Source: Chitinophagales bacterium
GTDB lineage: Bacteria > Bacillota > UBA5301 > DYFA01
Length of the DNA stretch: 62,895 nucleotides
Direction of reading: 5' to 3'
Assembly (NCBI GenBank): GCA_050260095.1
Contig: JBLNBQ010000180.1
Span: 1-62,895, forward strand
Below are positions 9,367 to 31,564 of the stretch, one piece after another. The notes under the pieces were generated by a model that saw nothing but the letters and a program-made list of their open reading frames with translations, was not told where the DNA came from and searched no databases. Position 1 is the first letter of the stretch; the number at the start of each line of letters is the position of its first letter. The translations under genes were made by a program, and so were the position numbers.

Positions 9367-9379
9367 TAGAGGTCCTCCT

Positions 9380-9718
9380 TCAAGCGAAAGCCAGGCGGTA
9401 GGCCCAGAAGGTGCCGGCGAGGAAGGCTGCGCCAAGCAGGACGTGCTTGGCCACCAAGAGCCGGAGCTTGACCTGGTCGCGCCCCGCCACCCCGGGCTCG
9501 CGGTAGGTGACCGCCCGCACGGCGCCCGTGAGGAGGATGATCGCCAGCGACACCAAGAGCCACCGGAAGGCCAACCCAAGGACGGGCCGGCCGGCGGCCA
9601 ACAGGCCAGTCGCGGCCAGAACCCGGCGCAAGCCCGCCGAGACCAGCACCAGGGCGAGCCAGAAACCGGTGGCCAGGTCGTGAACGAAGTTGTTGACGAT
9701 GATCGCCCCGTCGCGCAT
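9380..9718 (-). CDS. Small integral membrane protein (3 predicted helices), function unknown
   Basis: MRDGAIIVNNFVHDLATGFWLALVLVSAGL...LLVSLAIILLTGAV...LLGAAFLAGTFWAYRLAFA. Its ATG overlaps the TGA of the upstream LuxE-like gene (ATGA), and it sits 13 nt upstream of the radical SAM gene. Confidence 0.6.
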   Translation of the reverse strand: MRDGAIIVNNFVHDLATGFWLALVLVSAGLRRVLAATGLLAAGRPVLGLAFRWLLVSLAIILLTGAVRAVTYREPGVAGRDQVKLRLLVAKHVLLGAAFLAGTFWAYRLAFA

Positions 9719-11289: not shown

Positions 11290-11820
11290 TTGACCAAAGA
11301 CGTGATCGACTGCATCCGGGAGCGCCGGAGCGTGAGGCGGTGGCAACCCGCCGAAGTGCCCGACGCCACCCTCGGCCGGTTGCTCGAATGCGCGGTGCTC
11401 GCCCCCAGCGCCGGCAATACCCAGGCGTGGCACTTCTACGTCGTGAAGGAGCGAACCCGGCGCCAAGCCCTCGCCGCGGCCGCCAACCACCAGCTCTTCA
11501 TCGCGGAGGCGCCGGTCATCATCGGTGTCTGCGCCGACCTCCCGCGCATCGCAAACCGCTACGGCCAGCGGGGGGTCACGCTGTACGTGCTGCAAGACAC
11601 GGCGGCGGCGATTCAGAACCTCATGCTGGCCGCCAACGCCTTCGGCCTGGCGACGTGCTGGATCGGGTCGATGGACGAGCGGGCGGTCGCGCAGGCGCTC
11701 GAGATCGCCGATCCCGGAGAACGCCGGCCTGTCGCGCTCATCCCGGTCGGCTATCCGGCCGAGGAGCCGGCTCAGCGGCCGAGGCGGCCCATCGACGAGG
11801 TGGTGACGGTCTTCGCCTGA
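11290..11820 (+). CDS. Nitroreductase-family oxidoreductase
   Basis: IRERRSVRRWQPAEVPDATLGRLLECAVLAPSAGNTQAWHFYVV and a C-terminal IPVGYPAE match the NfsA/NfnB-like fold signature. TTG start follows GAAAGGGGAG. Confidence 0.85.
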   Translation: MTKDVIDCIRERRSVRRWQPAEVPDATLGRLLECAVLAPSAGNTQAWHFYVVKERTRRQALAAAANHQLFIAEAPVIIGVCADLPRIANRYGQRGVTLYVLQDTAAAIQNLMLAANAFGLATCWIGSMDERAVAQALEIADPGERRPVALIPVGYPAEEPAQRPRRPIDEVVTVFA

Positions 11821-13739
11821 GGGGCTTCGGGCAGGGGCGCGCGGCGGGCCAGGACGACCCGGTTGCGCCCCTGGGCCTTCGCCCGGTAGAGCGCCTCGTC
11901 GGCCCGGGCGACCAGATCGTGGGCGGTCGACGCCTCGTGCGGGAAGGACGCCACGCCCAAGGAGACGGTGACCCGCCCGAGGGGCTGGCCGTCATCGCCG
12001 GCGAGGCTCAGCCCGGCCACGCCCCGCCGGATGCGTTCGGCCACCACCAGGGCCTGGCTGGAGGGAGTCTCGGGCAGCAGGACGCAGATCTCCTCCCCGC
12101 CGTAGCGGAACACCTGGTCGACCGTGCGCACGCTGTTGCTCACCACCTCAGCCACCCGCCGCAGCACCACATCGCCGCTCAGATGGCCGTAGAGGTCGTT
12201 GTAGCGCTTGAAGTGGTCGATGTCCAGCATGAGGAAGGACAACTCCCGCCCGTAGCGCTCGGCCCGCAGCACCTCTTCCGACAGGCGGGCCTCCAGGCGC
12301 CCGACGTTGTACAGGCCGGTCAAGGCGTCGCGGACCGACCGCTCTTCCGCCTCTTCGTGCAGGCGGGCGTTCTCGATGGCCATCGCGGCATGGGTGGCCA
12401 GGGTCCAGAGAAAGGCTACATCGTCCTCGGCGAAACCCGAGGGACCCTCCCTGACGCAGGTGAGCGCCCCGATGCGCTTCGTTCCCGTCACCAGCGGGAC
12501 GCAGAGACAGCACCCTCCCCCGCCCGGCTCGCCGCGTCCCACGGCCGCGTGCGCCAGTTCCGTGACCTCCGCCGTCAAAAGGCTGGGCGGCCCGTAGGTG
12601 GCGGCGACCGCCAGCCCGCCGTGCTCCCGCGCGAGGTGCAAGACTCCCGCTTCCGCGCCCAGGAAGAAAGTGGCCTCCTGCAACACGGAGGAGAGGACGG
12701 CCTCGAGTTTGAGCGATTCCGTGAGGCGCCGTGAGATCTTGAGCAGGGCTTCCATCTGGTCGGCCTTGTGCCGGACGCGCCGGAACCGGCCGGCGTTGGC
12801 GAGGGAGATCACGGCCAGGCCGGCGAAGGAGGCCAGCATCGCCACGTCGTCCCAGGTGAACCGGACGGCCTCCCGGAGACTCCCCACCGCCAGCACGCCC
12901 GCCGGCGTCCCTTCGAAGAGAAGCGGGACGACCACCGCCGACTGAAAACCACGGCCCGGCCAGGCCGCGACCGTTTCCGCCCCAGCCGGTCCCGCCGCAG
13001 CCTCTTCCGCTTGCAAGAGCACGGGGCTGCCGGTGACCAGCGGCCGCCCGAGCGGCCCTTCGCCCGGCACGATGGTCCGCTCTTGCTCCGTGAACGGCAG
13101 GTTGAACGCGTCCACCACCCGGAAGGCGCCCGCCTCGGCCTCCCACAGCGCGAGGCAGCCGGCGGACCCGCCCAACAGCTCGACCGCACTCTGCACGATC
13201 TTGGGCGAGAGTTCCGGCACGTCCGCCACCGGCAGCACGGCCTGCGAGAGGTCGAGCAGCGTCTGTTGCACCTGCAGGCGCCGTTCCCGCTCCCCCACCA
13301 GTTGGTTCCGCTCGAGGAGCACGGGCAGCAGGTCGCAGAGCGTGCGGAAACCGGGGCGCTCCACGACCCGCAAACCGTCGCGCCCCGCCGCGAACAGGGC
13401 GACCACCCCGAGCAGCCGGTCACCCAGGCAGAGCGGCGCGGCGGCCGACCGCCCGTCGTCGGCGAAGGTCGGCCGGCGGAGTTCGGCCGCCCGCGCCGCC
13501 AGGCCACCCGGCGGCGACTCGAGCCGCTGGCGACCCAAGTTGCGGATGACGAGCAGCGGGAGGCCGTGCGACGCCACCATCCGCAGCTCATGCTGGGGTG
13601 GGTCGTACAGGAAGAGGGCCCCGGCGTCGACCGCGGCGGCTTTCACGAGATAGGCCAGCGCGCGGCGCATGAAGACCTCGGGGCTGTGCCCGGTGGAGAG
13701 TTCCCGGAGAAAACCCGAGAGCAGTCCGGATTCGTCCAT
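11772..13739 (-). CDS. Multi-GAF sensor diguanylate cyclase (GGDEF)
   Basis: C-terminal RDALTGLYNVGRLE...LLMLDIDHFKRYNDLYGHLSGD...FRYGGEEICVLLPET...VSLGVASFP...ADEALYRAKAQGRNRV, with a GGEEI active site. Three GAF-like segments lie upstream. Start is the ATG at 13739 (MDESGLLSGF). The remaining 466 N-terminal aa of ORF 11772..15137 are antisense to a real gene. Confidence 0.85.
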   Translation of the reverse strand: MDESGLLSGFLRELSTGHSPEVFMRRALAYLVKAAAVDAGALFLYDPPQHELRMVASHGLPLLVIRNLGRQRLESPPGGLAARAAELRRPTFADDGRSAAAPLCLGDRLLGVVALFAAGRDGLRVVERPGFRTLCDLLPVLLERNQLVGERERRLQVQQTLLDLSQAVLPVADVPELSPKIVQSAVELLGGSAGCLALWEAEAGAFRVVDAFNLPFTEQERTIVPGEGPLGRPLVTGSPVLLQAEEAAAGPAGAETVAAWPGRGFQSAVVVPLLFEGTPAGVLAVGSLREAVRFTWDDVAMLASFAGLAVISLANAGRFRRVRHKADQMEALLKISRRLTESLKLEAVLSSVLQEATFFLGAEAGVLHLAREHGGLAVAATYGPPSLLTAEVTELAHAAVGRGEPGGGGCCLCVPLVTGTKRIGALTCVREGPSGFAEDDVAFLWTLATHAAMAIENARLHEEAEERSVRDALTGLYNVGRLEARLSEEVLRAERYGRELSFLMLDIDHFKRYNDLYGHLSGDVVLRRVAEVVSNSVRTVDQVFRYGGEEICVLLPETPSSQALVVAERIRRGVAGLSLAGDDGQPLGRVTVSLGVASFPHEASTAHDLVARADEALYRAKAQGRNRVVLARRAPLPEAPQAKTVTTSSMGRLGR

Positions 13740-13928
13740 TTGCCGCCTGCCTTGGGGGATGCGCGCCCCATCAGAATAGCAATAAGTTCCACCAACGCCA
13801 GCCCGTTCCTGCTGCCGGCTCCGGCCCCTCCGCTGCCGCCACTTCCCACAAGGTGACTGCTCCAGCGAGGCGTAATCCCACCGTTTAGCTGCACCTTCGC
13901 GTTCCCGATCCGTATTATGGCATGAGGA

Positions 13929-15203
13929 GTGGCACTTGCGGTGCGGGGAAGATCGCTGCGTACGATCGTTGGATTGGTGATCCTGGGTGCAGGAGCGGCA
14001 GCCGCGGCGTTCGCGCTTCCCGCGGCCCAAAGCCTCAGGGACGACACGGCCCGTCCGGCCGGCGCCGGCAGGCAGGTCCGCCTTGTGACGCCGCCGGTGG
14101 GCGCCCTGCTCGACCCGCAGCGGCCCGACCGCGCCGGCACGCTTCACCTGGCGGCGCCCACCTCGCCGTATGATGCGACGAGGCTGCTCGTACCCCGGCC
14201 GTTCCAGGGGGAACGGGTCGAGCGCCCGAATCCCGTCCACGGCATCTACCTCACCGGGTGGGTCGCCGGCCTGCCCGGCCGCGTCGGTGCGCTGCTCCGG
14301 CTGGTCGACGAAACCCCGCTCAACACCATGGTCATCGACGTGAAGGATGACGAAGGGACGCTCACCTACCGCATGGCCCTGCCGCCGGGCGTAGGTCCCG
14401 GCATCGAGCCTTCCCTCAAGGTCGCCGACATCGACGCCCTGCTCGCCACCTTGCGCGAGCACGGGGTCTACACCATCGCCCGGGTGGTCTCCTTCAAGGA
14501 CCAGGTCCTGCCGAAGGTCCGCCCCGACCTGGCTGTCCAAAAGCCCGACGGCTCCGTCTTCTGCGACCGGGCCGGGTTCATGTGGGCCAACCCCTATTCC
14601 CGGCAGGTCTGGGAGTACAACGTCGCGGTGGCGAAGGACGCCGCCTCCCGCGGCTTTGGCGAAATCCAGTTCGATTATGTGCGCTTCCCGGACGTCCCCA
14701 AGTCGCTCAGCCTGGTCTTCCCGGGCCAGGACGGGCGGAGCAAGGCGCAGGTCATCCGGGACTACCTGGCCTACGCGCGCCGGGAACTCCTGCCCTACGA
14801 CGTCAAGGTTTCGGCCGACATCTTCGGCCTGGTCACGACCGTGAAAGACGATCTCGGCATCGGGCAGAACCTGGAGGCCGTCGCTTCGGTGGTCGACTAC
14901 CTGAGCCCGATGACCTATCCTTCCCACTACGCCCGGGGCGAGTTCGGCCTGTCCGACCCCGACGCCGTCCCCTATGAGACGGTCTACCTCTCCCTCCGGG
15001 ATGCGGTGCGACGGCTCAGGGCGGCCGGGCTGGACGCCGGGCTCGTGCCGTGGCTGCAGGACTTCTCCCTGCGCCACCGCTATGGGCAGGACGAAGTGCT
15101 CGCCCAGGTCAACGCGGCGGCCGACCTCGGCATCCACGACTGGTACCTCTGGAACCCGGCGAACCGTTACACGGCGGCGGCGCTCCAGCGCCTGGCGAGG
15201 TGA
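13929..15203 (+). CDS. Putative secreted TIM-barrel glycoside hydrolase (DUF4015-like)
   Basis: Signal/anchor LRTIVGLVILGAGAAAAAFALPAAQ. Then VHGIYLTGWVAG...TPLNTMVIDVKDDEGTLTY...FMWANPYSRQVWEYNVAVAKDAASRGFGEIQFDYVRFPD. The GTG at 13941 may be the real start. Confidence 0.55.
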   Translation: MALAVRGRSLRTIVGLVILGAGAAAAAFALPAAQSLRDDTARPAGAGRQVRLVTPPVGALLDPQRPDRAGTLHLAAPTSPYDATRLLVPRPFQGERVERPNPVHGIYLTGWVAGLPGRVGALLRLVDETPLNTMVIDVKDDEGTLTYRMALPPGVGPGIEPSLKVADIDALLATLREHGVYTIARVVSFKDQVLPKVRPDLAVQKPDGSVFCDRAGFMWANPYSRQVWEYNVAVAKDAASRGFGEIQFDYVRFPDVPKSLSLVFPGQDGRSKAQVIRDYLAYARRELLPYDVKVSADIFGLVTTVKDDLGIGQNLEAVASVVDYLSPMTYPSHYARGEFGLSDPDAVPYETVYLSLRDAVRRLRAAGLDAGLVPWLQDFSLRHRYGQDEVLAQVNAAADLGIHDWYLWNPANRYTAAALQRLAR

Positions 15204-16291
15204 AGCGCATGCGACGGCCGACGTTGACCCTCCCGCTCGCCGTCACGTTCGTCGTCCTGGGGCTGGCCGCCGCTCTGGCCGCCAGAACCAGGCTGCTCGT
15301 CCGCCCGGCCGCCGCGGCGCCCGCGAAGGCCGAGCCGGCCGCGGTCGAACCGGTGACGGCGAAACCCCAGCCCGCGCCGGCGCCTCCCGGCCCCCTCGCC
15401 CCCAACGAGGCGGGACAGATCATGGTGCTCATGTACCACCGCTTCGAACCGAAGCCGGGCGACTGGAACCGGACGCCCGCCGACTTCCGCCGCGACCTCG
15501 AAACCCTGTACCGGGAGGGTTACCGGCTGCTGCCCTTGCGCGACCTGCTCGCCGGGCGGATCACCACGCCCCGCGGCTACACGCCCGTCGTGCTGACCTT
15601 CGACGACGGCTGGCGCACCCAGTGCAACTACCTCGAGAAGGACGGCAAGCTGGAGGTCGACCCGGACAGCGCCGTGGGCATCCTCGAGGCCTTCGCGAAA
15701 GCCCACCCCGACATGGGGCTCGCCGGCACCTTCTACCTCAACGCGGACCCCTTCGGGCAGCCGAAGCTGGCCAAGGCCAAGCTGGAACACCTGATCGGCG
15801 AAGGTTTCGAACTCGGCAACCACACCGTGAATCACACCAACCTCCGCCAAGCCAGCGCCCAGGTGGGCCGCAAGGAGATGGCCGGCATGGTGACGATCAT
15901 AAACCAGCTGGTCCCCGGCCACCGGATGGACACGATGGCCCTTCCCTTCGGCGCTCTCCCGCACGACCGGAGCGTCGCGGTCTCGGGCACCGTGGACGGC
16001 GTAAGCTATCACAACAAGGCGGTGCTGCTGGTGGGCGCCAACCCGGCTCCCTCGCCCTATGCGACGGCGTTCGACCCGCTGAACCTGCCGCGGGTCCAGG
16101 GCTCAGAGGCGGAACTCGGGCGCTGGCTCGCCTATTTCCGCAGCCACCCGGAGGCCCGGTTCGTGAGCGACGGGAAAGCAGACGTGATCACGGTGCCGGC
16201 GAGCCGCCGCGGCGAGCTCGGCGCCGGCCTCCCCACCGAGCAGGGGCGCAAGGTGGAAGTGCTGCCGGCCGCCTCACCGGGTGCCCGCTAG
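15200..16291 (+). CDS. Polysaccharide deacetylase (NodB-homology) with N-terminal anchor
   Basis: MVLMYHRF, VVLTFDDGWRTQ and LGNHTVNHTNL are NodB motifs. The GTG at 15200 overlaps the TGA of the upstream gene (GTGA). An alternative ATG is at 15209. Confidence 0.8.
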   Translation: MKRMRRPTLTLPLAVTFVVLGLAAALAARTRLLVRPAAAAPAKAEPAAVEPVTAKPQPAPAPPGPLAPNEAGQIMVLMYHRFEPKPGDWNRTPADFRRDLETLYREGYRLLPLRDLLAGRITTPRGYTPVVLTFDDGWRTQCNYLEKDGKLEVDPDSAVGILEAFAKAHPDMGLAGTFYLNADPFGQPKLAKAKLEHLIGEGFELGNHTVNHTNLRQASAQVGRKEMAGMVTIINQLVPGHRMDTMALPFGALPHDRSVAVSGTVDGVSYHNKAVLLVGANPAPSPYATAFDPLNLPRVQGSEAELGRWLAYFRSHPEARFVSDGKADVITVPASRRGELGAGLPTEQGRKVEVLPAASPGAR

Positions 16292-20896: not shown

Positions 20897-21106
20897 TTGC
20901 CGAAGGTTAGGTGTTCGGTGGACAGCTGCCATTACTGGGAGAAGAGCAATTACTGCACCGCGGACGAAGTCGAGGTCAGGCGGGACAACGAGCTCGGGAG
21001 TGCGGCCGGGGGCGCCCGGATGGAGATCGGCACCATGGCCGGCAACGCCGAAACCTCGGCGAGTACCGCCTGCAAGACCTTCAAGCCCAAGGCGGGCAAG
21101 TCGTGA
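20897..21106 (+). CDS. DUF1540-domain small Cys-rich protein (spore-associated family)
   Basis: VRCSVDSCHYWEKSNYCTADEVEV and a second half-repeat ...TSASTACKTFKPK. TTG start follows GGAGGTGA. Confidence 0.7.
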   Translation: MPKVRCSVDSCHYWEKSNYCTADEVEVRRDNELGSAAGGARMEIGTMAGNAETSASTACKTFKPKAGKS

Positions 21107-21672: not shown

Positions 21673-21752
21673 CGTTGCCTCCACGCATGCTGCCTCCTTC
21701 ACAGGGGTATTCTCCGCCGGCGGCCCGGGAGGTATGCGGACGGCGCCCCAGG

Positions 21753-23594
21753 TCAGAGGGTGTGGCAGCTCGTGACGCAGTCGGCCTTCTGCCAGTTGCC
21801 CGAGCCCGGCAGGTACGGCTGGCCCAGTGCGTCCCGGGCAAAGGCGATCTTCGACCCGGCGTTGTACGGGTACGGATCGGTCCGTTCCACCAGCATGGCC
21901 CGGTTCTTGTAGCCGTGGGGCACCCCGGCGTGACAACTGGTGCAGGCGACCTGGTGGTACGGGGCGCCGTGTAGGCTGGTACCTCCCGGACTGCGAAAGC
22001 CGGTGTTGCTGCCCAGCCCGTCGAGGTAGAGGGCCGGATCGTGGCACTTGAAGCAGAGATGCCCGCTTGTTCCCGGGCTCCCGGTGGGCGCCGAGGCGGC
22101 GGGCGCGGACGCCCCTTGATGTACCCAGGGAGCTTTCAGGATAAAGGGATTCTCCGAGCCATGCGGTCCAGACGGACCGTTCCCCGCAGCGCCGTGACAA
22201 TCGCAGCAGCTGAGAACAGTCTCCCAGCTCCACGCCTTGCCGGTTCGGTCCGACCCACAGAACGCACCCGGCCACATCAAGTCGCGATGGGCGTGCCCAC
22301 TCACCACGGCGTGCAAGCCCCCGTTGTTTGGATTGAACGCCACAGCGGGGCTGGTCTGAGGTGAGGCGGAAAGTCCATCAAGGGTACGGCGAGAGGGCGA
22401 AACCGGCGGATTCAGCCCATAACTATAGCCCGAGTGACACTTGAAGCAAAGCTGGTATTCGAAAGAGATGGAGTTGCTCTCGACACAGGAGGGCTCCGAC
22501 CAGGGAAGTCCCAAGTACTGGACGCTCACTCCGCTCGCCCCCTGCAGCGCGCCGAACACACCCGGAGCTGCCGGGTGAGACTGCGCTGCGACATGTGGGT
22601 TATGGCAATCCACGCACTCGGAGTGGCGATCCAGGCTCGGCACAGAACGCCTGGTTTCACGGGGATCGTGCGGAGCAAGGCCCAGTTCATGACGGGCTGG
22701 CATGGCCTGAGCCGCCGCGATGTTGGTGCCGCACTCTCCGTTATGGCAGACCAGACAGCCATCGGAACCCACTTCCCGCCCGAGCCGCTCGGGTTGGCGC
22801 GCTTGGTGCGGTTTATGGCAACTGAGGCACGCGGCCTGCGCCACCGTGCTGAAGGAAGGGCGCAAGCCCAAACTGGCGGGGATCGGCCGCTCAGAAGCCA
22901 AGGCGTGCCCGCTGCGGTCCCAGCCCGCCACGACGTGGCAGGTTATGCACAGCGTCCCCCCGTAAGTCCCGGTCCGGTCGACCGGTCGCTTGACCAGGAA
23001 CGGTTCAAATTCGGGATCATGGGGCGAGTGACAGGTCGTGCACTGGACCCGCCCCGCCTCATCCAGCCGGACCGGATCTCCAGGCTGGGGCGGTCGGAGT
23101 CCTGGCTTGGCTGCGGGAAAAGGTCTGCTCACCGGATGATCATCGCGGAGGTCCGTTTCAAGTCGGGCGTGGCCCGGTGGAACAGCGCCCCGCACATCGA
23201 CATTCGCCATGTTCCGATAGCCGTTACAGAGCTCACCCAAGGCGACCGTACCGTCATGACAACTGAGGCAAAGGGTGGAAACCCCATTGGGTTGCTCGGG
23301 CGGGGAGGCCACCGTGCTGCTCTGATAGACTTCGTAGTACTGAGAGCTGAGCTTGTGACTGAACAGGTAAGCCTCCTGATTTGCGTGATGTGGAACATGA
23401 CAAAACACGCAGACCTGCGTCTCCGTGTAGGAAGTGATGGGCCCCATCCCTCCGACCGAAAAGTCGTGTTTCGAGCCGCGAATGGTTCCCGCTGACATCG
23501 TCGGGCAGCTGAATCCTGCAAGCGCCGCGGTCAGAGCGGCCACGGTCGCGAGCCGCATCAGGTGACAGGCGGGTCGAGTGCAGAAGGACTCCAT
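21753..23594 (-). CDS. Large secreted multiheme c-type cytochrome (11 CXXCH plus 1 CX3CH)
   Basis: Heme motifs: CVFCH, CLSCH, CTTCH, CITCH, CLSCH, CLVCH, CVDCH, CFKCH, CCDCH, CFKCH, CTSCH, and a terminal CVTSCH. The N-terminal ~200 aa are paralogous to the two tetraheme proteins (GSKHDFS...VCVFCHVPH...CLSCHDGTVAL...DDHPV). Hydrophobic signal MRLATVAALTAALAGFSC. Start is uncertain (23594 or 23558). Confidence 0.85.
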   Translation of the reverse strand: MESFCTRPACHLMRLATVAALTAALAGFSCPTMSAGTIRGSKHDFSVGGMGPITSYTETQVCVFCHVPHHANQEAYLFSHKLSSQYYEVYQSSTVASPPEQPNGVSTLCLSCHDGTVALGELCNGYRNMANVDVRGAVPPGHARLETDLRDDHPVSRPFPAAKPGLRPPQPGDPVRLDEAGRVQCTTCHSPHDPEFEPFLVKRPVDRTGTYGGTLCITCHVVAGWDRSGHALASERPIPASLGLRPSFSTVAQAACLSCHKPHQARQPERLGREVGSDGCLVCHNGECGTNIAAAQAMPARHELGLAPHDPRETRRSVPSLDRHSECVDCHNPHVAAQSHPAAPGVFGALQGASGVSVQYLGLPWSEPSCVESNSISFEYQLCFKCHSGYSYGLNPPVSPSRRTLDGLSASPQTSPAVAFNPNNGGLHAVVSGHAHRDLMWPGAFCGSDRTGKAWSWETVLSCCDCHGAAGNGPSGPHGSENPFILKAPWVHQGASAPAASAPTGSPGTSGHLCFKCHDPALYLDGLGSNTGFRSPGGTSLHGAPYHQVACTSCHAGVPHGYKNRAMLVERTDPYPYNAGSKIAFARDALGQPYLPGSGNWQKADCVTSCHTL

Positions 23595-23619
23595 TCCACT
23601 CTCACACTCCCATGGAGGA

Positions 23620-24444
23620 TTAGTCCCTCCGATAGTCGAGACGGCGGTGACAACCACAAAGGCATCCACCGCCGGTGGGAGTCTCCGTGAACACGATGGG
23701 CAACTCCCACTGGCCGAAGGTCACGCGCCTTCGAATGAGGTGGGGCTGCTCCGAACCATGGGCCTCGTGACATACCCAACATGAGCGACCTTTGTTCGGG
23801 TCATTCACGTGGAAGTAGTGGTCACTCTTTCGCCCGTTCCGAAAGTTGGTCGCGTCTTTTGTTTCGGATGCCACAACCAAAGCCTCGGGATGACACTTGA
23901 AGCATAGCGCGAAGCGCCGGCTCGTGAAGGGGGCGTAGAACCGGCTGTCGAAGGGAGCCTTCAGCAGTTGTCGGTACGGCGAGTTGTGCGCTTCATGGCA
24001 AGCGGTGCACTTCCCTTCGGCGACGGGTCGATGGACAGAGTTCCGGGTCATCTGCTGGGCAATCTTCGGGTGGCACTTGGTGCATAAAACCCCTTGCGGT
24101 TGCTTCAGCAAGGCCGGGTAGGCTGATTCATGTGGGTCGTGGCAGGTGGAGCACGGCTGCTCCCGCACCACCTGATGCCTCACCCCGACCGCCATCTGAT
24201 CCTGAAGGTCGCGGTGACAAAAGAAGCACAGCTCCCGTTCAGGCGCGGCCAAGCCATGGGGGCGTGCGGCATCGTGCGCCACATGGCAGACATCGCAACG
24301 GCCGGCAGAATACGGCCCGTGCCTGAAGGTCCCTCCGTTCTGATTCGCTGCGGGCGCCCCTGCCGCTTCGGCCCGCCCCAAGGCCAGTAGCGCCAAGAGA
24401 GTGAGCCAAAGGGGGAACCGGCGGAGGCAGGCCACTGATCCCAC
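23620..24444 (-). CDS. Secreted octaheme-type c-type cytochrome (7 CXXCH plus 1 CX3CH), cytochrome c3/c7-like repeats
   Basis: CDVCH, CFFCH, CSTCH, CTKCH, CTACH, CFKCH, CWVCH and a C-terminal CLCGCH. Repeated C..CH.(P/A)H.S.Y..LL spacing. Signal VACLRRFPLWLTLLALLALGRAEA. GTG at 24444 follows GGAGGGG. Confidence 0.85.
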   Translation of the reverse strand: MGSVACLRRFPLWLTLLALLALGRAEAAGAPAANQNGGTFRHGPYSAGRCDVCHVAHDAARPHGLAAPERELCFFCHRDLQDQMAVGVRHQVVREQPCSTCHDPHESAYPALLKQPQGVLCTKCHPKIAQQMTRNSVHRPVAEGKCTACHEAHNSPYRQLLKAPFDSRFYAPFTSRRFALCFKCHPEALVVASETKDATNFRNGRKSDHYFHVNDPNKGRSCWVCHEAHGSEQPHLIRRRVTFGQWELPIVFTETPTGGGCLCGCHRRLDYRRD

Positions 24445-24461
24445 CGGAACACCCCTCCAGC

Positions 24462-25259
24462 CTACTTCTTGTGGCAGGTCAGGCAGAGCGCGCTTCCGTC
24501 GTTGGAACAACGGAGAAACGGCCGGAAACCAGGGTCGTGCACGGCGTGACAGGAACCGCACTCGACCTTGTTAGAGTACAGCCGAACCCCGTTTGGCCAG
24601 AGCTCTCGAGCCGGAACCGGCTCAAATCGGTCGGCGTAAGTGGTCGGGTCGGGGTAGTTGACCCCCACCGGGTGGTCATCGGTCAAATCCTGGGTCAGGT
24701 AGTGACCAGAATAGTCCGCCGCGGCACCGATGGGACTCGCGTCGTGGCATGAAACGCCGCAATCCCAGAACGCGTTGTTGCTCTGACTGGCGGCCGCCAT
24801 CTTCCCGTGGAAAGGAACCTCGGTGGGGTACGCCGGGTTCGTCCACCCGCCTGGGTTGGGCCGACCGCCGGGACGACTCATGGGCATTCTGATCACGGAG
24901 TCGACCGCGATCGTGCCGTCATGGCATGATAGACACATCAAGGACGAGTTGCCGGGTGCACTCGGTGCGCTGATCATCGTCCAACTCCGGTAGACCGGGT
25001 AGCTCCCGGGATCGGGAAGGCTGCGGTTCCAGAGCATCGTCACCTGGGTGGATGCGTTGTGGGGAGTGTGGCAGTAGACGCAGACCTGATTATAGTCGTT
25101 ATAGGTGTTCCAGAAGGTCATGCTTGGAGACTGCATGGCATGCGAGAGATCGTGCAGCGAGCCGACGATGGTCGAAGCCTGAGCAACCATTGAACAGGCA
25201 ATGATGATGGTGGACACCACAGTAATCAGATGCAAAGGCAGCCTGTGCTGAGAACGCAA
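24462..25259 (-). CDS. Secreted tetraheme-type c-type cytochrome with doubled-CXXCH C-terminus (paralog of 28117..28968)
   Basis: IVGSLHDLS...VCVYCHTPHNAS...LWNR...CLSCHDGTIAV...CGVSCH (CX3CH)...DDHPVG...CGSCHAVHDPGFRPFL...CLTCHKK. TTG start at 25259 lies 8 nt after AGGAGG. Confidence 0.85.
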   Translation of the reverse strand: MRSQHRLPLHLITVVSTIIIACSMVAQASTIVGSLHDLSHAMQSPSMTFWNTYNDYNQVCVYCHTPHNASTQVTMLWNRSLPDPGSYPVYRSWTMISAPSAPGNSSLMCLSCHDGTIAVDSVIRMPMSRPGGRPNPGGWTNPAYPTEVPFHGKMAAASQSNNAFWDCGVSCHDASPIGAAADYSGHYLTQDLTDDHPVGVNYPDPTTYADRFEPVPARELWPNGVRLYSNKVECGSCHAVHDPGFRPFLRCSNDGSALCLTCHKK

Positions 25260-25275
25260 CTGAACCACCTCCTGA

Positions 25276-27228
25276 TCAAAAACAGCGTCTGACCCCGAAC
25301 TCCAATCTCCCTCGGGCGGCATCCCTGCCTAGGTCCTCTTCAAGTCCAGCCTCCAGGTTCACGCTCAACAAGCCAAGGCGGTAATCGGCCCGGAAGTCGG
25401 TCGTCAACTGATGCCGGGTCGCATTCACGAAGTTGCGGACGTAACCCAGCGACGCAGAGAGTCTCAATCCAGGCCTTGGGTTGGCGAGGGCTTGGATCCC
25501 AGTCTGAACTGCCTTGTCCTCCACTGCCCGACCAGCCTCTCGATCAGTCCGCACCAGGGCCTGTGCAAAACCTTTGAGCCGGAAGAACCCCTCCTCGACC
25601 AACTGGTATTCGCCCCGTACCACGTCCCTGCGCAGAGCGGCATCGGAAGACTTCTCCCGATCACAACGCCAAGTCAACGTGAAGGGGTCCCGCGTGTAGA
25701 CGAAGGCCACGTTGGCCAGCCTGTTATGATCCTCCCGGTACACCGTGGTCGTGAGACTGAACGGGCCATCCGCCAATGCCAGTTGTTGGCTTGACCCATA
25801 ACTATTTACTATTCTGTTCCCTCGTTCCAGCGAATATTCGCGGTCGTGATAACTAGTGAGCCCGCAGCGGAAGGACAGCGTATCGGCCGTTGTGGAGGCA
25901 GTCAGGTTTCCCGTATAGGTGATTCGTTCGGAATCTCCAGCGGGGCGCTGGGTGTCGTAGCTCACTCGGACTTCCTTGATTGAGGGGTCGCCGCGCCAGA
26001 TGAGATCCACCGCGGGGGCCACGTCGTCGTTCACACCAAGGGGCAGCCAGAGTTCGTAATCGATGCCGCGGGTGAAGACGCGGTGACCCAACGAGACGCG
26101 GATGCTGTCAACCACGACGTTGGCACCCTGCAGCCGGGCTGGTCCCTCAGTGGTGCAGACGATCTCGCCCAGGACCGGCCGAATGATGTTCCCCTGCCCT
26201 CTCTCCGGCAGCCACCCTCCTGTTGCACCGAGAGTTAATCTCAGTGGACCTACGTCCCCATTCCACTGCAGTCCTCCTTCGGGTCCCAGCGCTTCCCGGG
26301 AGACGTCCCCGCTCTCGTAGAACCGTGCCTTTTCGCTCAGCGATCCCTGCCATCCTTTTCCCAGACTCGCGGTGGTGGAGACTTCGCCCTTGACCTCAGT
26401 TACCAGACGGCTCTCAACCCGAGTCCGGTTTGCTTCGAGCGTAAGCGTCGAAGCCCAGTTCTCTCGGTGCTGAAGATCCAGCGTCTCAGCCAGGCGAGTT
26501 TCCTCTCCAGGTCGATCGCCCTCGACCAGATTTCTTTGATAGGACGATCGCAGGTGGAGCAGGTCGTATAAGAAGTAATTGTCGAGCGCAGTCTTGAGCG
26601 TGCTCCCTTCAGCCGAATGCCCACTCAACCGGTCGAGCGCATACCGGCGATTCCACTCGAAGTCGAGTGTCGCGTCGCGTCCGAACTGCCGTCGATTGGA
26701 GAGCGCATAGTCCAGCGTCAGCATGTCTTCGGGGATCTCCGGATCTTCAAGTACCCGCTCGGTGGCCGTGTACCTGGCGGTGATGGGTTGTTGCCACGTG
26801 CCAAGCAAACTGAGAACACTCACCGTGTCAGTCTCCAGTCGGCAAGACGGACGGAAGTCCTGGTGCAGCTCCTCAGACTGGATACTCCCGGTGACGAAGG
26901 TGCGGACGAGAGAGAGCGGCAGGACCTGCAGGTCGATGTTTCCGTCCTTAACGCGCACGGACGAGGCAGTGGCCAGCCGGCCCTGTGCGTTCCAACTCAA
27001 CAGGTACGGATGGAGCGAGTACCCAGCCAGTTGAACGCTGAGGCCTTGCTCCGGCGACCCCGTCAGCAAACGTTGGTCACCTTGTCTCGCATAGGTCAAC
27101 GTCTCACTCAAGTCCAGGTTCGCGGTCCAGTCGCTGACCCTGAAGATCGGCCACGATTCGGCAACTGCTCCCAATTGAAGCACGAAGAGAAGCGCCACCA
27201 GCATGGCGAGGCCAGATCCCCGGCTCAT
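25276..27228 (-). CDS. Predicted outer-membrane beta-barrel (porin-like) protein embedded among cytochrome genes
   Basis: Signal peptide MSRGSGLAMLVALLFVLQLGAVAES. About 620 aa of amphipathic alternating-residue segments rich in Y/W/R/D/G/T/S (for example TLDFEWNRRYALDRL, STLTLEANRTRVESRLVTEVKGEVSTTASLG, LRLSASLGYVRNF, TTDFRADYRLGLLSVNLEAGLEE). C-terminal ...LEFGVRRCF ends in Phe. I recognised no cofactor or enzymatic motifs. Confidence 0.6.
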   Translation of the reverse strand: MSRGSGLAMLVALLFVLQLGAVAESWPIFRVSDWTANLDLSETLTYARQGDQRLLTGSPEQGLSVQLAGYSLHPYLLSWNAQGRLATASSVRVKDGNIDLQVLPLSLVRTFVTGSIQSEELHQDFRPSCRLETDTVSVLSLLGTWQQPITARYTATERVLEDPEIPEDMLTLDYALSNRRQFGRDATLDFEWNRRYALDRLSGHSAEGSTLKTALDNYFLYDLLHLRSSYQRNLVEGDRPGEETRLAETLDLQHRENWASTLTLEANRTRVESRLVTEVKGEVSTTASLGKGWQGSLSEKARFYESGDVSREALGPEGGLQWNGDVGPLRLTLGATGGWLPERGQGNIIRPVLGEIVCTTEGPARLQGANVVVDSIRVSLGHRVFTRGIDYELWLPLGVNDDVAPAVDLIWRGDPSIKEVRVSYDTQRPAGDSERITYTGNLTASTTADTLSFRCGLTSYHDREYSLERGNRIVNSYGSSQQLALADGPFSLTTTVYREDHNRLANVAFVYTRDPFTLTWRCDREKSSDAALRRDVVRGEYQLVEEGFFRLKGFAQALVRTDREAGRAVEDKAVQTGIQALANPRPGLRLSASLGYVRNFVNATRHQLTTDFRADYRLGLLSVNLEAGLEEDLGRDAARGRLEFGVRRCF

Positions 27229-28049
27229 CAGCCGCCCACCCCCTGCGGCGTTTCGTGCGCCTTATGACAGGCCAGGCAGTCACGCCTGCCCCGCCCGCCG
27301 TCACAGGAGAGTTGACCCGAGGGGTGGCAGCGGAAGCACAGTTCGGCGGTGAGTTGCTGCCTGAGCAGCCGAGCAGCTTGGGAGGCATGGGGATCATGGC
27401 AGGCCAGACAGTCACCGATCGCAACCGGGCCGTGAGTCACTCCCTTGCCATACTTGGGGTCGGTGTGGCACGTCCGGCAAAGATCTCCACGTTCGGACTT
27501 GAGGAAGAACCGGCGGTCGCCGCCGTGGGGGTCGTGGCACTTGGGGCACTTGCCCTCCCGGACGGGCTGGTGGATGGTGAACCCCTCCCGAAAACCGTCC
27601 CTGCCGCCCCAGGCGAAATCGTGGCAACCCAGACAAAGACTTGGCAGTCCGGCGGTGGTATGGTTGGGGTAGGCTGTCTCATGGGAAGTGTGACATCCTG
27701 AGCAGTCCCCGACTGCCACTGGCCCGTGCTGGCGGCTACGCTCGAAGTCGTTCTTCTTGTGGCAGAACCAGCAGAGGTCGGCTCCTTTGGCCAGGAGTTC
27801 TGACCCCTTGGTCAAGTCGTGGCACTTGTTGCACTCCATGTTGCGGTAGGGGGGGTGAACCTTCTTCTCATCCACCGGTACAGAGGTGTCCGTTTCCTCG
27901 ACCACGGCCTGGCGGGCTTTGAGCCCGTGTTTCAGTTCATACCGTTCCTTCGCCACAGCCAGATAGGCCGGGTCAACCAAGCATCCGGCCGAGGTCGAGA
28001 GGAGCAGTACCAACAGGGACATGAGCGCATACCGCCGCCAGACCTGCAT
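27228..28049 (-). CDS. Nonaheme c-type cytochrome lipoprotein
   Basis: Lipobox-like LLLSTSAGC. Nine CXXCH motifs: CNKCH, CWFCH, CSGCH, CLGCH, CPKCH, CRTCH, CLACH, CFRCH, CLACH. Its stop overlaps the start of the barrel gene (ATGA). Confidence 0.85.
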   Translation of the reverse strand: MQVWRRYALMSLLVLLLSTSAGCLVDPAYLAVAKERYELKHGLKARQAVVEETDTSVPVDEKKVHPPYRNMECNKCHDLTKGSELLAKGADLCWFCHKKNDFERSRQHGPVAVGDCSGCHTSHETAYPNHTTAGLPSLCLGCHDFAWGGRDGFREGFTIHQPVREGKCPKCHDPHGGDRRFFLKSERGDLCRTCHTDPKYGKGVTHGPVAIGDCLACHDPHASQAARLLRQQLTAELCFRCHPSGQLSCDGGRGRRDCLACHKAHETPQGVGG

Positions 28050-28067
28050 GGAAACGTCCCTCCGTGG

Positions 28068-28103
28068 AAAACCAGGGCTGGAATCCGGCCGTCCCAGCCC
28101 TGG
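28068..28103 (-). terminator. Intra-operon hairpin/partial terminator after the first tetraheme cytochrome gene
   Basis: The minus strand reads CCAGGGCTGG-13 nt loop-CCAGCCCTGG followed by TTTT, between the stop at 28117 and the next start at 28049. Confidence 0.5.
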
Positions 28104-28116
28104 CTCATCAGTAGGA

Positions 28117-28968
28117 TTACTTCACGTGGCAGGAGAGGCAGAGCTTGGACCCGTCCATGGACTCCCGGAGGAACGGCCGCAGGTCGGCGGTGGCTCCCGG
28201 CTCATGGACGTTGTGGCAAGTGTCGCACTCCATGTACGCTGCACCTGTGCCGTTTTCAGTGGGACCGCCAACGCTGATACCGGTGCCGCCCCACAGCGGG
28301 AGCTTGGCCGGGTAGTTCGCGCCGTTGCCAGCGGTGTAGGTCCGGGTGCCGATGATGGTCGTTCCAACGAGGCCAACCGCCTGGTTGTTGTTGGTCCGCT
28401 CGTTCCGGTAGGCCGCGATGTAGTCGAAGCCGACCGGATGGTCATCGGCCATGTTGACGCCCAGGTTGGCGCCGCGGGTTGACAGGATCTTTCCGTCCGC
28501 TGTGACCACAGGCGAGCCTGACAAGAAGGCGCCCACCGTGGTATAGCTGGGATCAGGGCTCGTCACGCCGAAATCCATCTTCCGCTTGACCTGGCGGAGG
28601 GCGATGGTGCCGTCGTGGCAAGAGAGGCAGAGATCGGTGCTGGTTCCGCGGAAGACCCCGCTTCCGGTGCCACCCCATACGTTGGTATGGGTCTGATCGC
28701 CGCCGTCCAAGGTCCAGCTGGCGTATCGGCCCTCCGGCGCCCCGAACTTGCGGTTCCACAACGGACCCTTGGTGTCGGAGTTGTGCGGCGTATGGCAGTA
28801 GATGCAGACCTGCTTGTTGCCGTCGGCTCCATCGCTCCTCACGGTAGCGTCGCCAGAGGGGGACAAGTCGTGCTTGGACCCAACGATCGTGGCCCCGACC
28901 GCGCTGGAGAAAGAGAGCACCAGACTCGCCACCAGCACGAGGGTCAGAGTTCTCTTCACGTTCTTCAC
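28117..28968 (-). CDS. Secreted tetraheme c-type cytochrome with doubled-CXXCH C-terminus
   Basis: Signal KRTLTLVLVASLVLSFSSAVGA, then TIVGSKHDLS...VCIYCHTPHNS...PLWNR...CLSCHDGTIAL...DDHPVG...CDTCHNVHEPG...RPFL...CLSCHVK. Three in-frame GTGs sit in a 9-nt repeat. The second (28968) has the best spacing to GGAGG. Confidence 0.85.
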   Translation of the reverse strand: MKNVKRTLTLVLVASLVLSFSSAVGATIVGSKHDLSPSGDATVRSDGADGNKQVCIYCHTPHNSDTKGPLWNRKFGAPEGRYASWTLDGGDQTHTNVWGGTGSGVFRGTSTDLCLSCHDGTIALRQVKRKMDFGVTSPDPSYTTVGAFLSGSPVVTADGKILSTRGANLGVNMADDHPVGFDYIAAYRNERTNNNQAVGLVGTTIIGTRTYTAGNGANYPAKLPLWGGTGISVGGPTENGTGAAYMECDTCHNVHEPGATADLRPFLRESMDGSKLCLSCHVK

Positions 28969-29041
28969 GTTCTTCACCTCCTTATATAGGTCTGTGGGCC
29001 TGGGGTCGGGCCGCCGGTAGCCGTCCCCGTAAGTCCCCGGG

Positions 29042-30085
29042 TCAGTCGCTCCCGAGGAACTGGAAAACCTGCACCCGTGCGTTAAGCTGATCGACTACGT
29101 AGAGCCGGTTCTGGGCGTCGATGCACATCCCCGCGGGCAGGTGGAATTCGCCGGGCCCGGCCCCGCCGGCCCCGACGAAGAGCAGGAGCTGGCCTTGCTG
29201 GTTGAAGATCTGGAAGTTGTTGAACGCAGCGTCCACCACGTAAAGGTTCCCGTCGCTATCTAGCGCGGCGCCTCGCGGCCGGCTGAAACAGCCGGGCCCG
29301 TCACCGAGCTGACCGATCGCCTTGAGGAACTTGCCGTTCTGGTCGAAGACCTGCACCCGGAAGTTCATCGTGTCGACGATGTAGATATGATGGTTCTTGT
29401 CCACCGTCACGTTGGTGGGGTAGTTGAAGTACCCGTCTTTGTTCCCGTTGCCGCCGATGGTGGAGAGCGGCGTGCCGTCGGTGCGGTAGACCTTGACCAC
29501 GTGCCCCTTGGAATCAACCACGTACAACCGGCGAAGCTTGCTGTCCACCGCGATGCCGGCCGGATTCTTGAGCTCCCCCTCCTGTCCGACGGCCCTGACG
29601 GGCTCCCCGGCCCGGTTGAAAGCATAGACGCAGCGGGCTTCGGCGTCGGACACCCAGATGGTGTCCTCCTCCTCGTCAATAGCAACCCCAATCGGGACTT
29701 TGAGCTGAATGCGGCCTTTGACTCCGATCTTCCACGCCTTGCTGGCCTTCTTGTCGAACACCACGAGCGCCGGGTTCTTGCCGGTCTCCGTCACGTAAAT
29801 CCGGCCGGCCTTGTCCACCGCCACGCTGTACGGCTTCTCGAGTGCCACAGAGGGTGGCTGGGCCCCCACCAACAACTGCTGCAAAGCTGAACGCTTATCC
29901 GCGCCTATGTCCTTGGAAGTAGAAATGGCCTCCACCCACCGGATCCGCGGCTTCTCCGGCGGCAGGGGCCAGACGAGGTCTATCTTCTTGGCCGGGGTCT
30001 TCTCCGCGGCCAGACTGCCGGCGGCGCCCATCGTGAGAAGCGCCGCGAGGGTGAGAAGAATGAAGAACCGTGATCCCCGTGTCAC
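29042..30085 (-). CDS. Secreted six-bladed NHL-repeat beta-propeller protein
   Basis: Signal FFILLTLAALLTMGAAGSLAA. Six NHL-type blades: PYSVAVDKAGRIYVTE, PIGVAIDEEEDTIWVSD, PAGIAVDSKLRRLYVVD, PTNVTVDKNHHIYIVD, PRGAALDSDGNLYVVD, PAGMCIDAQNRLYVVD. GTG at 30085 follows AGGGAGGGA. Confidence 0.85.
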   Translation of the reverse strand: MTRGSRFFILLTLAALLTMGAAGSLAAEKTPAKKIDLVWPLPPEKPRIRWVEAISTSKDIGADKRSALQQLLVGAQPPSVALEKPYSVAVDKAGRIYVTETGKNPALVVFDKKASKAWKIGVKGRIQLKVPIGVAIDEEEDTIWVSDAEARCVYAFNRAGEPVRAVGQEGELKNPAGIAVDSKLRRLYVVDSKGHVVKVYRTDGTPLSTIGGNGNKDGYFNYPTNVTVDKNHHIYIVDTMNFRVQVFDQNGKFLKAIGQLGDGPGCFSRPRGAALDSDGNLYVVDAAFNNFQIFNQQGQLLLFVGAGGAGPGEFHLPAGMCIDAQNRLYVVDQLNARVQVFQFLGSD

Positions 30086-30332
30086 AGCCGTTCCCTCCCT
30101 GTCCTGGGCCCGCCCGCCCAAAAGCGGAACCCGCACGCAATAGTTCCGGCAATGGCTCGTCCTGGAAGCCACTCTTAATATAGTCAGTTGCTGCCGGCTC
30201 TATGCTCGCAAGTGCGGACAAGACTGGTCGGCCCATGCCCCGAAGCCCAAGGGTTCCATCATTCTACCTGCGTTATAGCGCTTAGCTGGGGAAGTCTAGT
30301 ATCAGCCCATGATGAAGGGAGGGAATCAAACG

Positions 30333-30793: not shown

Positions 30794-31564
30794 CTATTCA
30801 GGCAGTTTCGGGATGGGCGGCAGGCTCCGCTTGTGGGCGGAGGCGCGCCCGAGCTGCTCGACCCTGGTCCGGATGGCCTCGGGCGCCTCCCCGGTAACGA
30901 GGTACCGGTCGAGTTCGGCGTAGCTGAACCCGAGTTCGCCCTCGTCGGTCTGCGCCTCCCACAGGCCGGCGGAGGGCGGCCGGTCGATGACGGCCTGCGG
31001 CACCCCCAGCTCCCGGGCGAGCGCCCTGACCTCCGCCTTGACGAGCCCACCCAGGGGCAGCAGGTCGACCCCGCCGTCGCCGTACTTGGTGAAGTAGCCG
31101 ACCGCGAGTTCGGAGCGGTTCCCGGTGCCGGCGACCAGGTAGTTGCGGGTGTTGGCGTGGTAGTAGAGGGTCAGCATGCGCAGGCGAGGCTTTAGGTTGG
31201 CCGCGGCGAGGCGAGTCTCGCTCGGTTCGGGCGGCAGCACCTGGCGAAGATGGTCGTAGACCGGGGTCAGGTCGACCTCGCGGGTCTCGAGGCCGAAGGC
31301 GGCCGCGACCGCCTGGGCGTCCCTGGTGTCGGACGGGTGCGAGTGGCAGGGCATGATCACCCCGAGGACGCGTCCCGGCAGCGCCCGGGCGGCCAGCCCG
31401 GCGACCACCGCCGAATCGATCCCGCCCGACAGCCCCACGGCCAGCCCTTTGGCGCCGGCCGCCTCGACCTGCCCGGCGAGCCACTCGGCGAGCAGGGCCA
31501 CCGCCGCCGGCGGATGCTCTAGGGTCCAGGTTCGGAAGGCCCCGGAAGAGGCGCCGGTGGTCAT
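30794..31564 (-). CDS. nadE: NH3-dependent NAD+ synthetase
   Basis: GLSGGIDSAVVAGLA P-loop, NLKPRLRMLTLYYHAN, GTGNRSELAVGYFTKYGDGGVDLLPLGGL, SAGLWEAQTDEGELG. Confidence 0.92.
   Translation of the reverse strand: MTTGASSGAFRTWTLEHPPAAVALLAEWLAGQVEAAGAKGLAVGLSGGIDSAVVAGLAARALPGRVLGVIMPCHSHPSDTRDAQAVAAAFGLETREVDLTPVYDHLRQVLPPEPSETRLAAANLKPRLRMLTLYYHANTRNYLVAGTGNRSELAVGYFTKYGDGGVDLLPLGGLVKAEVRALARELGVPQAVIDRPPSAGLWEAQTDEGELGFSYAELDRYLVTGEAPEAIRTRVEQLGRASAHKRSLPPIPKLPE

Follow-up and report, generated by a model that had tools for sequence, protein, structure and literature searches.

An OmcE-like cytochrome, β-barrel and propeller operon on an acquired island of an endospore-forming Bacillota bacterium

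Contig JBLNBQ010000180.1 of assembly GCA_050260095.1, a genome classified among the Bacillota, is 62,895 nt long, and the whole of it is referred to here as the window. Its minus strand carries between positions 21753 and 30085 seven co-oriented open reading frames (ORFs), g1 to g7, which encode in this order a propeller, a tetraheme cytochrome, a nonaheme cytochrome, a putative β-barrel, a second cytochrome of the tetraheme type, an MtrA-like cytochrome and a 12-heme cytochrome. We consider it probable from sequence comparisons that this operon encodes an OmcE-type extracellular electron-transfer (EET) apparatus, homologous to the omcE nanowire clusters. The omcE cluster is regarded as the nearest known system, because g2, g5 and the N-terminal domain of g7 are OmcE homologs and because OmcE loci contain the same partners. 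An earlier note on this DNA had likened the genes to the Mtr and Pcc/Ext conduits; its proposal of an EET-type cytochrome-barrel-propeller operon stands, but the closest relative is neither Mtr nor Pcc/Ext.

The link to OmcE is found in three of the seven products. The tetraheme cytochrome g2 (28117-28968, 283 aa) matches over its full length the OmcE filament of Geobacter sulfurreducens (PDB 7tfs, E 4e-23), as well as the OmcE bundle of Desulfuromonas soudanensis (PDB 9yuq, E 3e-16). The second OmcE-family cytochrome, g5 (24462-25259, 265 aa), aligns end to end with 7tfs (E 1.8e-24) and also matches 9yuq (E 7e-22), and residues 45-245 of g7, in the numbering of its longer ORF, match 7tfs with an E-value of 1.5e-20. 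When g2, g5 and the g7 N-domain are aligned with OmcE and six more homologs, no variation is seen in the four CXXCH motifs or in four additional histidines, which belong to KHD, CHTPH, DDHP and CHxVH motifs; the eight conserved histidines are H23, H47, H50, H99, H141, H197, H200 and H222. This is the eight-histidine signature described as conserved in OmcE homologs in the D. soudanensis preprint (10.1101/2025.10.22.684050). The N-terminal histidine of KHD is taken, by analogy, as the ligand that one subunit would give to the heme of its neighbour.

The two paralogs are not equivalent. Within g5 an insert of about 25 aa harbours an additional CX3CH motif (CGVSCH or CGVACH), which is kept in the g5 orthologs of two related contigs (L045:5787-6563 and L145:8374-9147). 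The protein therefore may bind five hemes, and the insert suggests a five-heme variant of OmcE.

The third OmcE-related product, g7 (21753-23558), combines an OmcE domain with a C-terminal part that accounts for eight of its 12 heme sites (11 CXXCH and one CX3CH in total). An AlphaFold2 (AF2) model built on a 49-sequence alignment reaches a predicted local distance difference test score (pLDDT) of 76 and a predicted template modelling score (pTM) of 0.78. When the model was compared with the PDB by Foldseek, the sole match was 7tfs, on the N-domain and with a probability of 1.0; the 8-heme C-terminal part found no structural match there. All 11 CXXCH motifs are invariant among the 49 homologs. 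The idea that g7 might be a tandem triplication of the OmcE domain was considered and rejected, its C-terminal part giving matches at the level of heme motifs only.

The 650-aa product of g4 (25276-27228) has a signal peptide and ends in RRCF. It matches no Pfam or NCBIfam family and no PDB sequence (Phenol_MetA_deg, at E 0.016, lies under the cutoff), and a word-indexed search of 5.8 billion proteins returned only g4 itself, while a full HMMER search of 1.84 billion representative proteins yielded five relatives. The AF2 model built on these five (pLDDT 75.9) begins with a signal helix, after which come some 32 long antiparallel strands, and has a small insert (residues 360-418). Its top 50 Foldseek matches are all outer-membrane barrels, including TonB-dependent receptors, LptD, SprA and Deinococcus SlpA; the best E-value is 1e-8, all 50 are at or below 1e-5, and MtrB is not among them. 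According to this model g4 is a large outer-membrane-type barrel of approximately 32 strands, as the earlier note had supposed from its β-barrel-like sequence and terminal Phe, and no soluble non-barrel fold is predicted.

A relationship of g4 to the barrels of OmcE loci is visible by profile-profile comparison alone. Searches with g4 by tblastn and hmmsearch against the 80 OmcE loci described below gave nothing or marginal matches. With hhalign, the g4 family aligns to the OmcE-locus barrels of Acidobacteriota and Nitrospirota at 98.3% probability (E 1e-13, 544 columns), and the Acidobacteriota-type barrels in turn align to the Geobacter-type barrels at 98.7%. By these profiles g4 is a remote homolog of the barrels that adjoin omcE in Acidobacteriota and Nitrospirota. 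The C-terminal motif [RK][RK]xF is common to the OmcE-locus barrels of Bacillota, Geobacter, Acidobacteriota, Nitrospirota and Margulisiibacteriota; position -2 of this terminus is basic, not hydrophobic, which is atypical of the classical β-signal.

Two further cytochromes resemble MtrA. The nonaheme lipoprotein g3 (27228-28049, 273 aa, nine CXXCH) matches Paired_CXXCH_1 (8.5e-45) and the MtrA chain 6r2q_A (E 2.4e-10), and scores 84 bits with the DmsE-family model TIGR03508, under its cutoff of 192. Its lipobox (LSTSAG↓C) is kept in five Bacillota orthologs. The values for g6 (23620-24444, 274 aa, seven CXXCH and one CX3CH) are similar: 2.6e-37 for Paired_CXXCH_1, E 4e-11 for 6r2q_A and 75 bits for TIGR03508, again below threshold. 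In addition, g6 passes the MtrC/MtrF domain II/IV model PF22113 (41 bits, cutoff 30), and it is 44% identical to a multiheme gene located about 2.6 kb upstream of omcE in the two Geobacter loci L048 and L049. A possible homology of g3 to the Thermincola cytochrome OcwA was rejected (6qvm_A, E 0.19); we take 6qvm to be OcwA, the title of the entry being just “Multiheme cytochrome cf”.

The propeller g1 (29042-30085, 347 aa) matches Pfam NHL (1.5e-32) and also the 6-bladed propeller family DUF5128, and has six blades. Its signal is of the signal-peptidase-I type, and a lipobox is absent in all five Bacillota clusters. The protein is 35-52% identical to the propellers adjoining omcE in Geobacter, Acidobacteriota and Nitrospirota.

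The arrangement of the genes is that of an operon. From g1 to g7 the gaps amount to 73, 67, -1, 16, 17 and 25-61 nt, and no credible intrinsic terminator was found between the genes. Ribosome-binding sites of the GGAGG type support the starts of g1 (GTG 30085, with GGGAGGG), g2 (GTG 28968), g3 (ATG 28049), g4 (ATG 27228), g5 (TTG 25259), g6 (GTG 24444) and g7, for which ATG 23558 (601 aa) and ATG 23594 (613 aa) are both eligible. In every product one hydrophobic segment is found, at the N-terminus, and there is no further transmembrane helix; Pfam recognizes g1 by its NHL repeats and the five cytochromes, without exception, by Paired_CXXCH_1. The CXXCH motifs add up to 35 (four in g2, nine in g3, four in g5, seven in g6 and 11 in g7) and the CX3CH motifs to three (CGVSCH in g5, CLCGCH in g6, CVTSCH in g7). 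Counted in six frames, 36 CXXCH motifs fall within the 8.3-kb cluster compared with two in the other 54.6 kb of the window, a density far beyond chance. The earlier note had given the same seven co-oriented genes in the same order and exactly the same motif counts, and it correctly assigned a signal peptide or lipobox to all seven products. It was also right about the tight spacing (0-80 nt), but the overlap that it read as a four-base ATGA, between g3 and g4, is a single base (TGATG).

A genome search seeded with the OmcE sequence returned 80 loci, which belong mainly to Desulfuromonadia, Beta- and Gammaproteobacteria, Acidobacteriota and Nitrospirota. A g1-like propeller is present in 71 of them, a g3/g6-like cytochrome in 39 and a full-length g7-like protein, in several phyla, in 20. 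More than half (52/80) encode a heme-less ORF of 450-1100 aa that ends in an aromatic residue; it usually follows directly after omcE and typically ends in [RK][RK]xF. In Geobacter hydrogenophilus an MtrA-like cytochrome comes first, followed by propeller, OmcE and a 752-aa barrel, which agrees with the published minimal omcE clusters (10.1101/2025.10.22.684050). The Acidobacteriota loci run from a propeller through OmcE, a 580-aa barrel, a second propeller and a g7-like protein to an MtrA-like cytochrome, and probably correspond to the EET1 porin-scaffold-cytochrome of a peat preprint (10.64898/2026.05.27.727921). The best matches outside the Bacillota come from Acidobacteriota and Nitrospirota for g1 (50-52%), from Geobacter for g6 (44%) and from Acidobacteriota for g7 (35-36%).

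Six OmcE loci of Acidobacteriota, Nitrospirota and Gammaproteobacteria (L073, L076, L080, L083, L102 and L126) share the parts list of the operon, comprising a propeller, OmcE, a barrel of 580-630 aa, a g7-like OmcE-fusion cytochrome and an MtrA-like cytochrome. They differ in that they usually have two propellers and one OmcE, follow another gene order and reside in classical Gram-negative hosts. A related cluster is also found in another phylum, in a metagenome-assembled genome of the Margulisiibacteriota (DATKMS010000150.1, L001:1086-14355). It encodes a 1307-aa 8-heme protein, an OmcE-like protein, two NHL propellers, a 5-heme MtrA-like protein, a 696-aa barrel ending in RRLF, a g7-like protein and a g6-like protein.

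Compared with the omcE clusters of Geobacter and Desulfuromonas, the operon has the same OmcE-fold tetraheme subunit with all eight histidine ligands. As in Geobacter, an NHL propeller (35% identical to g1) and an MtrA-like cytochrome (44% identical to g6) are adjacent, the large heme-less barrel ends in [RK][RK]xF, and all products are exported. Two further multiheme cytochromes, another feature of omcE clusters, are represented by g3 with nine hemes and g6 with seven plus one. In contrast to these clusters, the operon has two OmcE paralogs, one of which carries a fifth (CX3CH) heme site, and an extra 12-heme protein with an OmcE domain; a glycosylation gene block is lacking, and the gene order differs, the Geobacter barrel following directly after omcE. 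The barrel is also shorter (650 aa versus about 750 aa) and can be aligned with its Geobacter counterparts only indirectly. Its variant traits are the duplication of the OmcE and MtrA-like modules and the strong divergence of the barrel. OmcE homologs in a barrel-propeller context have been reported from five phyla that do not include the Bacillota (10.1101/2025.10.22.684050), and thus the host lies outside the range described so far. No paper linking OmcE to Firmicutes was found in the searchable literature.

A mechanism can be proposed on these grounds. All seven products would be exported via the Sec pathway, with hemes being attached outside the cytoplasm. The g4 barrel would form a wide pore in the outer membrane, and g3 and/or g6 would serve as periplasmic and intra-barrel heme wires, in the manner of MtrA inside MtrB. 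A polymer of OmcE subunits might be docked or nucleated by the OmcE domain of g7, while the 8-heme tail of g7 would join this polymer to the barrel-embedded wire. We propose g2, the fast-evolving and presumably exposed subunit, as the major filament subunit, with g5 as a conserved minor or basal subunit, g7 as a base or tip adaptor of the filament and g1 as a periplasmic assembly scaffold. The electron source would be a presumed quinol dehydrogenase of the inner membrane, whose genes lie elsewhere, and minerals, electrodes or partner cells would be the recipients; the reverse direction is equally possible.

A more far-reaching version of this scheme is conceivable, but we advance it tentatively: a high-GC diderm endospore-forming member of the Bacillota may have gained a complete OmcE nanowire machine by horizontal transfer, and g7 may supply the adaptor that has been missing so far, by which the filament would be nucleated, anchored or capped at the barrel. 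The study that described the OmcE bundle sought an adaptor of this kind in its own set of OmcE operons and found none (10.1101/2025.10.22.684050). Proteins like g7 are common outside the Desulfuromonadia.

Several points weigh against the assignment to an OmcE-type apparatus in this host. The apparatus is known here from its genes alone, and the filament structures (7tfs and 9yuq) are those of Geobacter and Desulfuromonas. Likewise, the roles suggested for g3, g5, g6 and g7 are drawn only from domain content and divergence rates. Compared directly with the Geobacter barrels, g4 reaches only 60% probability in hhalign, so that homology between them is transitive. Unlike the Desulfuromonadia clusters, the operon has one propeller, and this is not a lipoprotein. 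Neither an inner-membrane electron-input module nor cytochrome-maturation genes were found in the 63-kb window, nor was a gene for BamA, lipopolysaccharide (LPS) or OmpM; outer-membrane marker genes were not found in the 20-kb flanks of relatives either. Finally, the best matches of the host's YpeB outside its own clade are only 36-38% identical, and scans of the GTDB species genomes with YpeB and E1-beta gave one close metagenome-assembled genome besides distant or scattered matches.

Instead of disposing of electrons, the cell might use the same hardware to take them up from reduced minerals, Fe(0), cathodes or a syntrophic partner. Multiheme chains are intrinsically bidirectional, and the closest relatives of the genome stem from deep-subsurface and metagenomic samples. 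A precedent is provided by Desulfovibrio ferrophilus IS5, in which multiheme cytochromes are co-encoded and co-expressed with NHL propellers (DFE_448-451 and DFE_461-465; PMC5815863). These clusters, for which no barrel is reported, have been tied by experiment to extracellular electron exchange; the cytochrome clusters with two NHL propellers are induced upon electron-donor starvation and linked to uptake from electrodes (PMC5815863). The window, however, holds no signal for a direction. Uptake is compatible with an OmcE-type apparatus, and we regard it as a somewhat less likely use of these genes.

Another possibility is a porin-cytochrome conduit of the Mtr/Pcc type without any polymer, which is essentially the view of the earlier note. 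In this case g3 or g6 would thread g4, while g2, g5 and g7 would be monomeric or hetero-oligomeric surface cytochromes that pass electrons straight to their substrates. The operon does share the logic of Shewanella MtrCAB (6r2q), where a periplasmic multiheme wire inside a large barrel feeds outer cytochromes. Moreover, g3 and g6 resemble MtrA and the DmsE family, albeit at sub-threshold scores, g6 lies above the MtrC/MtrF domain cutoff, and the g4 barrel is big enough to accommodate a cytochrome. Tetraheme OmcE-like proteins are also very widespread and need not all polymerise, and similar Acidobacteriota clusters were modelled as Mtr-like membrane-spanning complexes in the peat preprint (10.64898/2026.05.27.727921).

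In contrast to MtrCAB, however, no MtrB/PioB-family barrel and no MtrC/OmcA decaheme cytochrome is present, and the outer partners are OmcE-fold proteins. Among the seven products no Pfam or NCBIfam model for MtrB/PioB, MtrC/OmcA or DmsE reached its cutoff; the MtrC/OmcA-family model TIGR03507 gave only 15.5 bits (with g2, cutoff 209). Nine and eight heme sites in g3 and g6, respectively, also differ from the ten of MtrA/DmsE. The likeness to Geobacter Pcc/Ext, in which a periplasmic cytochrome with eight hemes and a 12-heme lipoprotein accompany a porin-like protein of about 20 strands, lies in the heme numbers; the GSU2203-family model gave 62-73 bits (cutoff 325), in model libraries that do not cover Oma, Omb or Omc. 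Unlike OmcB of Pcc, g7 with its 12 hemes is no lipoprotein, and OmcE is its sole structural relative. The eight-histidine signature, including the KHD histidine, is invariant in g2, g5 and g7, and a context of barrel and propeller is the criterion by which likely nanowire-forming OmcE homologs were recognized (10.1101/2025.10.22.684050). We therefore judge a conduit without polymer to be unlikely.

The preferred reading, an OmcE-type apparatus, has to be reconciled with the host and with the way in which the genes arrived there. The host is an endospore-former. A barrel in such an organism is not in itself paradoxical, since the Limnochordia are Gram-negative, high-GC, spore-forming Firmicutes with an outer membrane, isolates of which have come from a Tomsk aquifer (PMC11456536). 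On the strength of its high GC and many GTG starts, and of a Tomsk label on the closest metagenome-assembled genome, the host might be placed in the Limnochordia, though no labelled match supports this. At least five Bacillota contigs have long retained a barrel that bears a signal peptide and a terminal Phe, which offers indirect evidence for an outer membrane. EET in a sporulating lineage is not unprecedented either, because multiheme EET is known from the spore-forming Firmicutes Thermincola and Carboxydothermus with their OcwA-type cell-wall cytochromes (PMC7911101, PMC7829351). The chains of these organisms differ from the present system in that they cross a thick peptidoglycan without a β-barrel (PMC7911101, PMC7829351).

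The operon was acquired as an island set exactly between the genes for a small acid-soluble spore protein (SASP) and a rubrerythrin. Relative to the closest genome (L002), the island extends over 8.6 kb (21681-30246): blastn homology ends at 30247 on the SASP side and restarts at 21680 on the rubrerythrin side. In L002 the two junction points are only about 40 nt apart, the SASP and rubrerythrin genes being adjacent, and the flanking genes are 62-72% identical to those of the window at the amino-acid level. The island has a GC content of 60-64% and a third-codon-position GC (GC3) of 0.70-0.84, compared with a GC3 of 0.88-0.93 in the flanks. It is absent at the same site in L002 and in the contigs L139, L140, L141 and L142, which represent two relatives. 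Its insertion has left no recognizable traces: direct repeats of at least 8 nt are lacking at the borders, as are genes for an integrase or a transposase.

In at least two further metagenomic contigs, L045 and L145, the same seven genes occupy the same site. A third carrier of the island is suggested by the g7-like protein P0127 and the YpeB protein P0014, both associated with a longest contig of 12,755 bp. A five-gene version, consisting of a propeller, OmcE, a small lipoprotein cytochrome, a g4-type barrel and a g7-like protein, is found near a yyaC-like sporulation gene in a Firmicutes lineage of lower GC content (L046/L047 and L143/L144, GCA_017656135.1). Identities to the orthologous islands are 68-78% for flanking genes, 67-68% for g1, 65-67% for g5, 64-67% for g6, 56-57% for g3, 54-55% for g7, 48-50% for g2 and 33-35% for g4. 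The fastest divergence, that of g4 followed by g2, is the pattern expected of environment-exposed parts, and g5 is clearly the better conserved of the two OmcE paralogs. Across the three orthologous islands, conservation amounts to 65-85% for g5 and 48-63% for g2.

The atypical composition of the island and its absence from several relatives would also fit cargo that was gained by horizontal transfer and that a monoderm host could not put to use, whether because the barrel fails to insert or because the genes are in decay. Yet all seven reading frames are intact, and heme motifs, lipobox and barrel terminus are kept in L045 and L145 as well as in the five-gene versions L046 and L144. In the three orthologous islands this holds for every heme motif and for the signal peptides too. 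For these features to persist in islands that now share 33-68% identity, purifying selection must have acted for a long time after the acquisition. The related five-gene version persists, moreover, in a second Firmicutes lineage, and we consider non-functional cargo to be very improbable. Least credible of all is the idea of a multiheme module in the periplasm that reduces or detoxifies a soluble N or S oxide, with the barrel as substrate porin: several cytochromes show weak similarity to NrfB and NrfH, but none of these scores comes near its cutoff, extracellular OmcE filaments are the strongest homologs, and a catalytic subunit is absent, as there is no CXXCK heme (as in NrfA) in the cluster and no molybdopterin, siroheme or Fe-S protein in or beside it.

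If the operon functions as proposed, OmcE-type filaments and barrel-dependent electron conduits extend into the Bacillota, conductive cytochrome filaments exist in Firmicutes, and the whole apparatus travels as a compact 8.6-kb island. The sister genomes with and without the island constitute a natural experiment on the contribution of the system. With more than 1,000 relatives in the databases, g7 is a candidate link between a trans-membrane heme wire and a filament, and it bears on the secretion, anchoring and termination of cytochrome nanowires. Should the host be diderm, the very divergent g4 would add an outer-membrane protein family to the sparse catalogue of diderm Firmicutes.

The neighbourhood of the island is rich in spore genes, which encode YpeB, a SleB-type Hydrolase_2 protein and an alpha/beta SASP. 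The description of the cluster as lying among endospore genes is accurate in this respect, but its placement is incidental, given that the inserted island is missing in the closest relatives. The divergent region between g1 and the SASP gene (30086-30308) is the sole sizeable non-coding gap upstream of g1 and the presumed site of the operon promoter; a scan of this region found no sigma-70 consensus, and the assignment is therefore by position. A small DUF1540 gene (20897-21100, plus strand) rich in Cys, likewise counted among the spore genes, is located on the opposite strand between those for rubrerythrin and SleB; it is conserved in all relatives and escapes length-ranked ORF lists. On the other side, nadE (NAD synthase, 30794-31564) is located between the cyclophilin-like and SASP genes, as in L145; it is missing at that place in L002, L045, L139 and L141 and hence represents a second small indel beside the island.

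Further away, the peptidase M48 and polysaccharide deacetylase/cyclophilin genes, near neighbours in L141, are set apart here by about 20 kb of metabolic genes (33000-54000). This stretch is another lineage-specific block and includes a split transketolase, a Liv-type ABC transporter, 2-oxoacid dehydrogenase E1/E2/E3, alcohol dehydrogenases and a GntR regulator. A B12-binding radical-SAM protein is encoded beside a LuxE-type acyl-protein synthetase (7885-11154, minus strand), and the pair is kept in L139 and L140. The 1121-aa ORF at 11772-15137 (minus strand) is probably a spurious high-GC shadow, overlain by plus-strand genes for a DUF4015 protein (13929-15203) and a polysaccharide deacetylase (15050-16291). 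Lastly, the NCBI labels of two relatives look wrong: L002 (DYFA01000038.1) is named “Aneurinibacillus sp.” and L141 (GCA_050260635.1) “Betaproteobacteria bacterium”, yet both are contigs of 66-69% GC with YpeB, SleB and SASP.

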